Of a stretch of DNA of 2,353 bases, positions 598 through 818 are shown piece after piece. The notes beneath the pieces were generated by a model, which made no database searches, had not been told where the DNA came from, and saw only the letters and a program-made list of their open reading frames with translations. The stretch is from Escherichia coli. Lineage in GTDB: Bacteria; Pseudomonadota; Gammaproteobacteria; Enterobacterales; Enterobacteriaceae. Numbering within the stretch: position 1 is the stretch's first letter; every line of letters begins with the position of its first letter. A program made the translations under genes and the position numbers. The DNA lies in assembly GCF_003334335.1 (NCBI RefSeq), contig NZ_QOWQ01000089.1, one strand, 5' to 3'.

Positions 598-615
598 GTC
601 GGGTCCTTTCCGGCA
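598..615. other. cosQ-like element upstream of cosN (approximate position)
   Basis: The block gggtcctttccgg (601-613) sits about 17-30 bp upstream of the cosN nick and is the same as the lambda right-end sequence I recall (GGGTCCTTTCCGG...GTTACG). In lambda, cosQ lies in this position. Exact boundaries cannot be set from sequence alone. Confidence 0.3.
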
Positions 616-624
616 TATGGACCC

Positions 625-648
625 GTTACGGGGCGGCGACCTCGCGGG
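625..648. other. cosN, the terminase nicking site; the 12-nt cohesive end corresponds to 631-642
   Basis: The sequence gttacg|GGGCGGCGACCT|cgcggg is present. GGGCGGCGACCT is the lambda cohesive-end sequence, followed by cgcgggttttcgctatttatgaaaattt as at the lambda left end. Predicted nicks are between 630/631 on the top strand and 642/643 on the bottom strand. Confidence 0.8.
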
Positions 649-682
649 TTTTCGCTATTTATGAAAATTTTTCGGGAAAAAG

Positions 683-694
683 CATGTCAGTTCT
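683..694 (+). promoter_or_regulatory. R3-like terminase binding element
   Basis: catgtcagttct, followed by tctt. Lambda R3 from memory is CGTTTCCGTTCT at the same offset from cosN. Confidence 0.55.
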
Positions 695-699
695 TCTTG

Positions 700-720
700 T
701 TGTTAACTTATTGTTTTTAA
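700..720. promoter_or_regulatory. Candidate IHF site (I1-like) between R3 and R2
   Basis: AT-rich segment ttgttaacttattgtttttaa. It contains taacttattg, which partially matches the IHF consensus read on the reverse strand (YAAnnnnTTGATW) and is at the position of lambda I1 (ATAACTTAATGTTTTTA from memory). The match is imperfect. Confidence 0.35.
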
Positions 721-735
721 AGAAATAATCATCAA

Positions 736-750
736 GAAAGAAACGACATC
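736..750 (-). promoter_or_regulatory. R2-like terminase binding element (inverted)
   Basis: The top strand reads gaaagaaacgacatc. Its reverse complement is gatgtcgtttctttc, which shares the core ATGTCGTTTCT with the R3-like element. Lambda R2 is likewise inverted (top strand AGAAAGGAAACGACAG from memory). Confidence 0.55.
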
Positions 751-783
751 AGAACGCTGAAAAATCTGTCTTTTTTGGCATTT

Positions 784-795
784 CATGTCGTAACT
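784..795 (+). promoter_or_regulatory. R1-like terminase binding element
   Basis: catgtcgtaact shares catgtcg with the other two elements but diverges in the 3' half. It lies about 24 bp upstream of the Nu1 start, comparable to lambda R1. Confidence 0.4.
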
Positions 796-818
796 GATTT
801 TTGATAAGGAATTGCTGA

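Follow-up and report, generated by a model that had tools for sequence, protein, structure and literature searches.

The 2,353-bp stretch of Escherichia coli DNA analyzed in this study (hereafter, the window) carries at positions 601 to 796 what is very probably the functional cos, i.e., the packaging site with cohesive ends, of the lambdoid phage PhiR5_1. By analogy with lambda and phage 21, the site would work by the mechanism established for those two phages, and it appears to combine cosQ and cosN of the lambda type with a cosB and a small-terminase DNA-binding domain that form a non-lambda cassette related to that of phage 21. The window is 99.9% identical over its full length to positions 24886 to 27238 of the genome record of Escherichia phage PhiR5_1 (PV340545.1), and the site is located 3' of Rz/Rz1 and 5' of Nu1/A, which is the canonical genomic place of cos. 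A first-pass annotation of the window had proposed a complete cosQ-cosN-cosB site at 598 to 800; every subsite was found at its canonical spacing, and the proposed interval takes in the entire site with good precision. For lambda, 21, and 434, the circular junction was rebuilt from both ends of each genome and compared with the window by means of the subsite annotations curated in the records of 21 and 434. In what follows, base pair numbers count from the nick, with window position 631 as bp 1.

The 12-mer GGGCGGCGACCT has a single exact match in the window, at 631 to 642 on the plus strand, whereas approximately 0.0003 exact matches are expected by chance. This predicted 12-nt 5' cohesive end is identical to that of 21 and, as the first-pass annotation had stated, to that of lambda, and in a sensitive BLAST comparison window position 631 aligned to base 1 of the virion-end records of four phages (lambda, phage 21, 434, and phi80). 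The cohesive end and the CG dinucleotides flanking it at 629-630 and 643-644 make up the 16-bp nicking site cosN (CGGGGCGGCGACCTCG, 629 to 644), which is identical to that of lambda and has predicted nicks at 630/631 (top strand) and at 642/643 (bottom strand). Ten of its 16 positions are symmetric, the same number as in lambda and the figure given by Murialdo and Feiss (PMC9026076). The conserved cohesive-end left half (bp 1 to 6) and the CG flanking both nick positions are the features by which a cosN can be identified (PMC4669245). When 72 distinct junctions of all classes were compared, the best-conserved columns were cosQ, the last bases before the nick, bp 1 to 6, bp 13 to 15, bp 19 to 41, and the flanks of I1, whereas bp 7 to 12 of the cohesive end were variable; the difference between the two halves of the cohesive end agrees with the functional asymmetry that Feiss et al. 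described for cosN (PMC4669245). Many loci with a TerS of the 21 type (L025 to L057) have alternative right halves of the cohesive end (GGGCGGCAGCGG, GGGCGGGAGCGT, and GGGCGGAAGGCG) and a different G-rich segment to the left of the nick, and in these loci the distance from the end of cosQ to the nick is 22 nt instead of 23 nt.

The packaging-termination subsite cosQ (GGGTCCT) is found at 601 to 607 on the plus strand and is identical to the annotated cosQ of 21 and 434. It ends 23 nt before the nick, which is the distance observed in 21 and 434. Within this stretch, 15 of the 23 bases match lambda and 14 match phage 21, and the stretch varies even among loci with an identical terminase, in which constancy is limited to cosQ, a few bases, and the terminal TTACG. 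The conservation of a "right-end block" asserted in the first-pass annotation therefore holds for cosQ, those few bases, and the last 5 nt, and it does not hold for the remainder. To the right of cosN, the spacer that leads to R3 (643 to 679 on the plus strand, bp 13 to 49) matches lambda and 21 at 33 of 37 positions each, and, together with the lambda-identical cosN, it bears out the description of the flanks of the cohesive end as lambda-like. The spacer includes the I2 segment (ATGAAAATTTT at 661 to 671), which is needed for termination (PMC4669245), and the X02501 record annotates an IHF-like sequence at bp 31 to 41.

The cosB of the window belongs to a class with 12 further copies, 6 of which are in IMG/VR and 6 in complete E. 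coli genomes (5 were aligned, and the sixth is located in an island of strain GF60). Its critical element is the predicted small-terminase binding site R3 (AAGCATGTCAGTTCTT) at 680 to 695 on the plus strand (bp 50 to 65), the position of the annotated R3 of 21 and 434, with G at bp 56 and A at bp 59, and the whole of R3 is invariant in 12 of 12 class members. The predicted integration host factor (IHF) binding and bending site I1 (AAACAATAAGTTA on the minus strand) lies between R3 and R2 at 704 to 716 (bp 74 to 86); it matches WATCAANNNNTTR at 12 of 13 positions and is identical at 12 of 13 to the I1 of lambda and 21. The consensus match alone is not significant, because two are expected per window, but its position is exactly that of the I1 annotated in 21 and 434. 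The inverted site R2 is predicted on the minus strand at 738 to 753 (reverse complement TCTGATGTCGTTTCTT), with its ATGTCG core at 744 to 749, within 1 bp of the R2 positions of 21 and lambda, and the accessory site R1 (TTTCATGTCGTAACTG) is predicted on the plus strand at 781 to 796, with its ATGTCG core at 785 to 790. The first 10 bases of R1 are identical to the R1 of phage 21, and both R2 and R1 are invariant within the class. The three R cores occupy bp 54 to 59 (plus), 114 to 119 (minus), and 155 to 160 (plus), at most 1 bp off their positions in lambda and 21, and three ATGTCR cores in this order of orientations within 188 bp stand against 0.19 expected (P about 1e-3).

A fourth ATGTCG is present in direct orientation at 856 to 861, 226 bp past the nick, within TerS codons 13 to 15, which belong to a conserved FNVD motif; it is probably a coding coincidence and not a remote R site in the style of phage N15. 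N15 resembles the window in its lambda-like cohesive end, its cosQ, and an R3 at about bp 48 to 59. On the other hand, N15 has a simple cosB, which is defined by a single critical R3 and an inverted rR2 approximately 200 bp away inside the terminase gene and which lacks an I1-R2-R1 array, and its TerS is 36% identical to that of the window. Such a cosB was rejected for the window because three R sites and I1 sit upstream of the TerS gene and the extra ATGTCG is direct, not inverted.

The first-pass annotation had located R3 at 53 to 64 bp from the nick, i.e., at 683 to 694 of the window (CATGTCAGTTCT), which is inside the annotated bp 50 to 65. This position was correct, but the sequence at it is not that of lambda; R3 is identical to that of lambda at only 12 of 16 positions and differs at bp 56 and 59, which are reported to discriminate lambda from 21 (PMC4669245). 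The label "lambda-like" is accordingly appropriate for cosQ, cosN, and the spacer, and it fails for cosB, which is a non-lambda allele related to that of 21 and is accompanied by a non-lambda recognition helix. Lambda and 21 have cosQ and cosN in common, and nevertheless the DNA of each is packaged by its own phage >1000-fold better than by the other (PMC4669245). The specificity resides in the recognition helix of the small subunit (residues 17 to 24, especially 20 and 24) and in bp 56 and 59 of the R sites, with bp 58 also important in lambda (PMC4669245, PMC9026076).

The TerS of the window (819 to 1367) has an N-terminal winged helix-turn-helix domain with the recognition helix RTIDRWQT (residues 17 to 24) and the wing SGGGKGVEV, which contains K35. 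The corresponding helix is RTIERWQS in phage 21 (R3 AATCGTGTCGGTACTT, all three R cores TGTCGG) and RTIQNWQE in lambda (R3 AGGCGTTTCCGTTCTT, all three R cores CGTTTCC), and the R cores of the window are TGTCAG in R3 and TGTCGT in both R2 and R1. All three R sites of the window have the 21-type G56; G59 is found in R2 and R1 but is replaced by A59 in R3, and R2 and R1 have T60, such that each R site of the window departs from that of 21 at bp 59 or bp 60. The TerS is 63.7% identical to gp1 of 21 and 62.4% identical to Nu1 of lambda overall. The identity is 73.5% to 21 and 64.7% to lambda in the DNA-binding domain, and 36% to 21 and 44% to lambda in the C-terminal TerL-binding part. The likeness to phage 21 extends to the cohesive end and cosQ, which are identical; the R3-I1-R2 (inverted)-R1 order with coordinates within 1 bp; the TerS start at +189 and length of 182 aa; the R cores, which share (A/G)TGTC with G56; and the helix, which shares R17-T-I and R21-W-Q. 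The two phages differ in the helix, with D20/T24 in the window and E20/S24 in 21, and in the wing, which is lambda-like in the window. Lambda, in turn, shares with the window an identical cosQ and 16-bp cosN, the order and spacing of the subsites, the protein families, a Fur-box-like palindrome adjoining cosQ, the distal half of R3 (GTTCTTCTT), and the type of wing, whereas its R core is CGTTTCC in place of ATGTC(A/G), with differences at bp 54, 56, and 59. Taken at face value, this comparison indicates that cosQ, cosN, and the spacer are of the common lambda/21 type, that cosB and the matching DNA-binding domain are a separate cassette without lambda specificity, and that the nearest relative of this cassette is that of phage 21 (TGTCGG; E20/S24).

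Lambda terminase would recognize and package window DNA if the site had lambda specificity, and the identical cosQ and cosN, the 33 of 37 identical spacer bases, the common distal R3 half, and the lambda-like wing of TerS might suggest as much. However, it is exactly with shared cosQ and cosN that lambda and 21 discriminate so strongly, the G56 of the window is a base reported to clash with Glu24 of lambda (PMC4669245), none of the three R sites contains CGTTTCC, and the helix is RTIDRWQT, not RTIQNWQE. The combination that defines lambda specificity (CGTTTCC with T56 and C59, and a helix with Q20 and E24) is replaced in the window by G56, A59 in R3, D20, and T24. Lambda specificity is very unlikely and was rejected on the sequence, and lambda terminase would not be expected to use the cosB of the window.

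The relationship between helix and R site was followed in 80 IMG/VR loci that encode relatives of the window TerS. The helix and the R3 core co-vary in discrete matching classes: RTIQNWQ(E/D) accompanies CGTTTCC in 31 loci as well as in lambda and 434; RTIERWQ(S/T) accompanies (G/A)TGTCGG in 33 loci as well as in phage 21; RTIDRWQT accompanies ATGTCAG in 6 loci as well as in the window (a seventh locus, L012, is too short upstream); and RTITAWQS accompanies AGATCC in 8 loci. The last of these is a fourth helix/R-site class that is not among the lambda, 21, and 434 references compared. The co-varying positions are residues 20 and 24 and bp 59 and 56, as identified genetically by Feiss and co-workers (PMC4669245, PMC9026076). 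A scan of the viral collection for the exact window-type R3 pattern gave 15 matches; 8 are true cos sites, all 8 of which adjoin a TerS with D20/T24, and the other 7 are chance matches in unrelated contigs. The window class is rare, with 1 occurrence in 50,697 phage records (the next-best TerS, that of phage 21, is 65% identical) and about 16 in 5,426 complete E. coli genomes, 4,263 of which, by comparison, have the cosQ-cosN-spacer part. The cosB/DNA-binding-domain allele of the window is rare, related to that of 21, and not represented by any characterized phage.

The uncharacterized IMG/VR prophages L016 to L020 and L046, which have the RTITAWQS/AGATCC pair, share cosQ, cosN, and the spacer with the window, whereas their cosB and the first ~48 TerS codons are replaced. 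In L016, the DNA is 100% identical to that of the window from ~bp 340 past the nick (TerS codon ~50) into TerL, but only 37 to 72% identical over bp ~59 to 338, a segment that covers cosB and TerS codons 1 to 48. Thus, cosB and the DNA-binding domain are exchanged as one cassette while the terminase backbone around them stays identical, which provides strong natural evidence that cosB and its reader work together.

Whether the window class differs in specificity from phage 21 is less clear, and an island in E. coli GF60 (NZ_CP172185.1, ~2567659 to 2578000; L090/L096) bears on this point. The island is ~10 kb long, resembles a phage-inducible chromosomal island (PICI), lies between roxA and phoQ, and contains genes for an integrase, AlpA, an Icd-like protein, a RepA helicase, SSB, PerC, a major capsid protein, and a head decoration protein, as well as a cos and a 194-aa TerS, without TerL. 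Its R sites and cosB are identical to those of the window, its cosN has T at bp 6, and the DNA-binding domain of its TerS is 96% identical to that of phage 21 gp1. D20/T24 and ATGTC(A/G) could be neutral variants of plain phage 21 specificity, with the window fully interchangeable with the terminase and cosB of 21. In addition to the GF60 pairing, this explanation is favored by the TGTC and G56 that the R cores share with 21, by the G59 that R2 and R1 also share, by the conservative nature of the changes of E to D and S to T, and by the identical layout, with the ATG at +189 and a TerS of 182 aa. Several observations are opposed to it. No R site of the window has the full hexamer TGTCGG; the critical R3 has A59 at a discriminating position (PMC4669245), and R2 and R1 have T60. 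In the viral collection, the window-type R3 in a cos context is always found with D20/T24, and 21-type helices are always found with G59. Furthermore, the DNA-binding domain is only 73.5% identical to that of 21 and has a wing of the lambda type. The GF60 junction was encountered just once; the island may be a recent and possibly nonfunctional recombinant, and since the junction is unique among the 5,426 complete genomes, it was given less weight as a test of compatibility between helix and R site. Full interchangeability with 21 is therefore a serious possibility, which we nevertheless consider somewhat less probable than a distinct specificity, and we lean toward partial or asymmetric cross-recognition of the window cosB by phage 21 terminase.

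The existence of the GF60 island also invites the explanation that the site in the window is the cos of a PICI-type satellite that hijacks the terminase of a helper phage, particularly as PICIs of Gram-negative bacteria carry lambda-like cosQ and cosN (PMC9026076) and the GF60 element combines PICI-like genes with the cosB of the window. In the window, by contrast, the site is placed between Rz/Rz1 and Nu1/A of a ~51-kb phage genome with its own large terminase, and there are no island-type genes nearby. A satellite cos was rejected on this gene context and is vanishingly unlikely.

For PhiR5_1, the record describes a lambda-like genome of 50,981 bp with E. coli C as the listed host, presented in the order of the prophage, in which the integrase is leftmost. 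Its head and tail gene set is complete and of the lambda type (Nu1, A, W, B, C/Nu3, D, E, FI, FII, Z, U, V, G, T, H, M, L, K, I, and J). The genome is ~105% of the length of lambda, which is near the upper packaging limit of lambda heads. In the same record, an annotated HipA/HipD pair adjoins cI, and two coding sequences are annotated for the tape-measure gene H.

Among the aligned copies of the class, variation to the right of the nick is restricted to 13 alignment columns, all of which lie outside the cohesive end/cosN, R3, the consensus positions of I1, R2, and R1. These subsites occupy 69 of 188 positions, and the hypergeometric probability that the variation avoids them is P = 0.002, a pattern that fits a site under selection and not a decayed one. 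The conclusion that the site is at work, which the first-pass annotation had also drawn in calling it functional and not decayed, is supported by this pattern of constraint on subsites that keep their canonical spacing, by the intact Nu1 and gpA genes, and by the deposited phage genome.

The opposite possibility is that the window contains a decayed relic of a cryptic prophage, out of use in the manner of the cos sequences next to nohA (Qin) and nohD (DLP12) of strain K-12. Those two resemble the window in the architecture of cos and in the Fur-box-like palindrome just left of cosQ, and they differ in their lambda-type helix and R sites and in belonging to defective prophages without a functional large terminase. 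In favor of a relic, cos-like sequences occupy roughly 8,000 places spread over 4,263 of the 5,426 E. coli genomes, and many belong to defective prophages; the Qin and DLP12 relics keep a near-perfect cos, such that the integrity of a sequence is in itself no proof of its use; and some copies of the window class adjoin a frameshifted TerL or an insertion sequence. However, the window matches a deposited phage, listed with the host E. coli C, that has the full set of head and tail genes as well as an intact TerS and an intact TerL, and the variation within the class spares the functional subsites. On the strength of the intact genes, the phage genome, and the constraint pattern, a relic was rejected and is extremely unlikely.

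A number of points weigh against a functional cos with a distinct cosB cassette. The nick positions and the overhang are assigned by homology, the PhiR5_1 record is given in prophage order, and cos is unannotated in it. A literature search found no paper that describes the PhiR phages, the only match being a preprint that used a related panel and is without end data, and the viability of PhiR5_1 rests on the host field of the GenBank record. Some chromosomal copies of the class belong to prophages in decay; L094 (E. coli RM10809-3) has a frameshift in TerL, and L093 (E. coli STEC434) has an IS21-family istB upstream of cos, at a distance of a few hundred bp. The specificity assignment draws on classes from few lineages, in which the pairing of D20 with A59 may go back to a single evolutionary event. 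Finally, the GF60 island, for all the uniqueness of its junction, pairs window-type R sites with a 21-type DNA-binding domain, which could mean that a helix of the 21 type reads window-type R sites.

From the lambda/21 paradigm placed on the window coordinates, we infer the following course of packaging. Dimers of the small terminase would dock their winged helix-turn-helix domains on R3 (680 to 695) and the inverted R2 (738 to 753), which an IHF-induced bend at I1 (704 to 716) would bring face to face, with R1 (781 to 796) acting as an accessory site. This docking would anchor the large subunit (encoded from 1339 onward) on cosN, and by homology we infer that its cleavage of the top strand at 630/631 and of the bottom strand at 642/643 leaves the 12-nt 5' overhangs GGGCGGCGACCT. 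Packaging would then proceed rightward through the head and tail genes, and at the next cos on the concatemer, cosQ (601 to 607), cosN, and the I2 spacer (643 to 679) would direct the terminating cut.

The genes around the site were assigned as follows. The C-terminal part of the Rz spanin gene occupies positions 1 to 263, where the gene ends, and the gene for the Rz1 lipoprotein is embedded in it in another frame (31 to 201); both were matched in PHROGs, and Rz1 has a signal sequence with a lipobox (MKLCALTLPLVVSAC). The PhiR5_1 record annotates Rz but not Rz1. The following 555 bp between Rz and TerS (264 to 818) are devoid of credible genes; short open reading frames that overlap cos (458 to 664, 529 to 720, 749 to 871, and others) were without credible family support and were treated as noncoding. 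The distance from Rz to cos in the window is 367 bp (264 to 630), compared with ~2 kb in lambda. TerS (plus strand, Nu1 family) matches Pfam Phage_Nu1 (E = 1e-81) and the PDB entries of lambda gpNu1 (6hn7 and 1j9i), and its Shine-Dalgarno sequence AAGGA (806 to 810, plus strand) lies 8 nt before the ATG at 819, with a ribosome-binding site annotated at the equivalent position of phage 21. The large terminase TerL (plus strand, gpA family; Pfam GpA_ATPase, E = 4e-55) is represented by its N-terminal 338 codons (1339 to 2353), which contain no stop codon and run off the window; in the PhiR5_1 record the gene has its full length of 1,929 nt. In NCBIfam, as opposed to Pfam, PHROGs, and PDB, there were no matches for TerS, TerL, Rz, or Rz1. 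Rfam gave no RNA families in the window at E ≤ 1, no terminator-like sites were found in 200 to 900, and no promoter-like sites were found at cos or at the Fur-box-like palindrome.

To the left of cos, a noncoding block of ~180 bp (388 to 573) is found between Rz and cos with 75 to 93% identity in about 400 lambdoid and Shiga toxin (Stx) phage records, some of them from phages whose packaging module is not of the lambda type. The block gave no Rfam, open-reading-frame-family, or terminator signal. In phage 434, this block is the stretch to the left of a gene for a DUF3950 (ylcI/ynfO-like) protein. That the block itself represents this gene, which is present in 434, Qin, and DLP12, was rejected by a negative tblastn search; the gene is absent from the window.

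Directly left of cosQ, two overlapping palindromic sequences that resemble the Fur box are predicted at 574 to 592 and 580 to 598 (GCAACTGACAATCATTATCATTTTG), each with 15 of 19 matches to the 19-bp Fur consensus GATAATGATAATCATTATC, and these are the best matches in the whole window. On this sequence basis, the palindrome at 574 to 598 is a putative Fur box that neighbors cos and is only a candidate for a part of it. Its homologues in prophage Qin are Fur sites located upstream of nohA, where the sequence is identical to the right end of lambda (16/19). Relative to the nohA start, the Qin homologues are centered at -236 and -230, in agreement with the published site at -233. Chen et al. (2007) described two Fur sites that overlap with an offset of 6 bp at "position -233" of nohA, the oligonucleotide of which was shifted with Fur in vitro and a fragment of which was selected in vivo by Fur titration (PMC2189734). 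In a supplementary table of the Fur pan-regulon, a peak from chromatin immunoprecipitation with exonuclease treatment (ChIP-exo) is given in one strain as intergenic and adjoining a transcription unit that contains nohD (PMC10164565).

Of the 61 distinct cos right ends, which include all terminase classes, 47 score at least 14/19 at the position of the palindrome, whereas no right end (0 of 61) reaches this score elsewhere within ±300 bp, and the sequence further upstream is unrelated between groups. The palindrome is absent from the PICI-like island of GF60 (L090). We know of no described role of this site in phage biology. That it is a working Fur operator belonging to the cos region of lambda-like phages generally and tying packaging to the iron status of the host is an unlikely proposal. 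If it were true, iron-loaded Fur only a few bases from cosQ would modulate some process at cos, for example, the termination cleavage, the access of terminase, or transcription across cos into the terminase genes, and a functional Fur box would add a new form of regulation to a site that has been studied very thoroughly.

As for the packaging site itself, it is of the textbook lambda type, and its confirmation would allow the PhiR5_1 genome to be reoriented to its true virion ends. The site predicts that PhiR5_1 is a cos packager with lambda-compatible sticky ends, for which end joining with other lambdoid DNAs would be possible. For the family as a whole, the comparison documents four or more natural pairings of helix and R site that co-vary among lambda-like terminases, with the variation at exactly the residues and base pairs identified by the Feiss laboratory. 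These classes and the cassette swap may serve as material on the evolution of packaging specificity and as a source of orthogonal cos/terminase pairs for cosmid and phage engineering.

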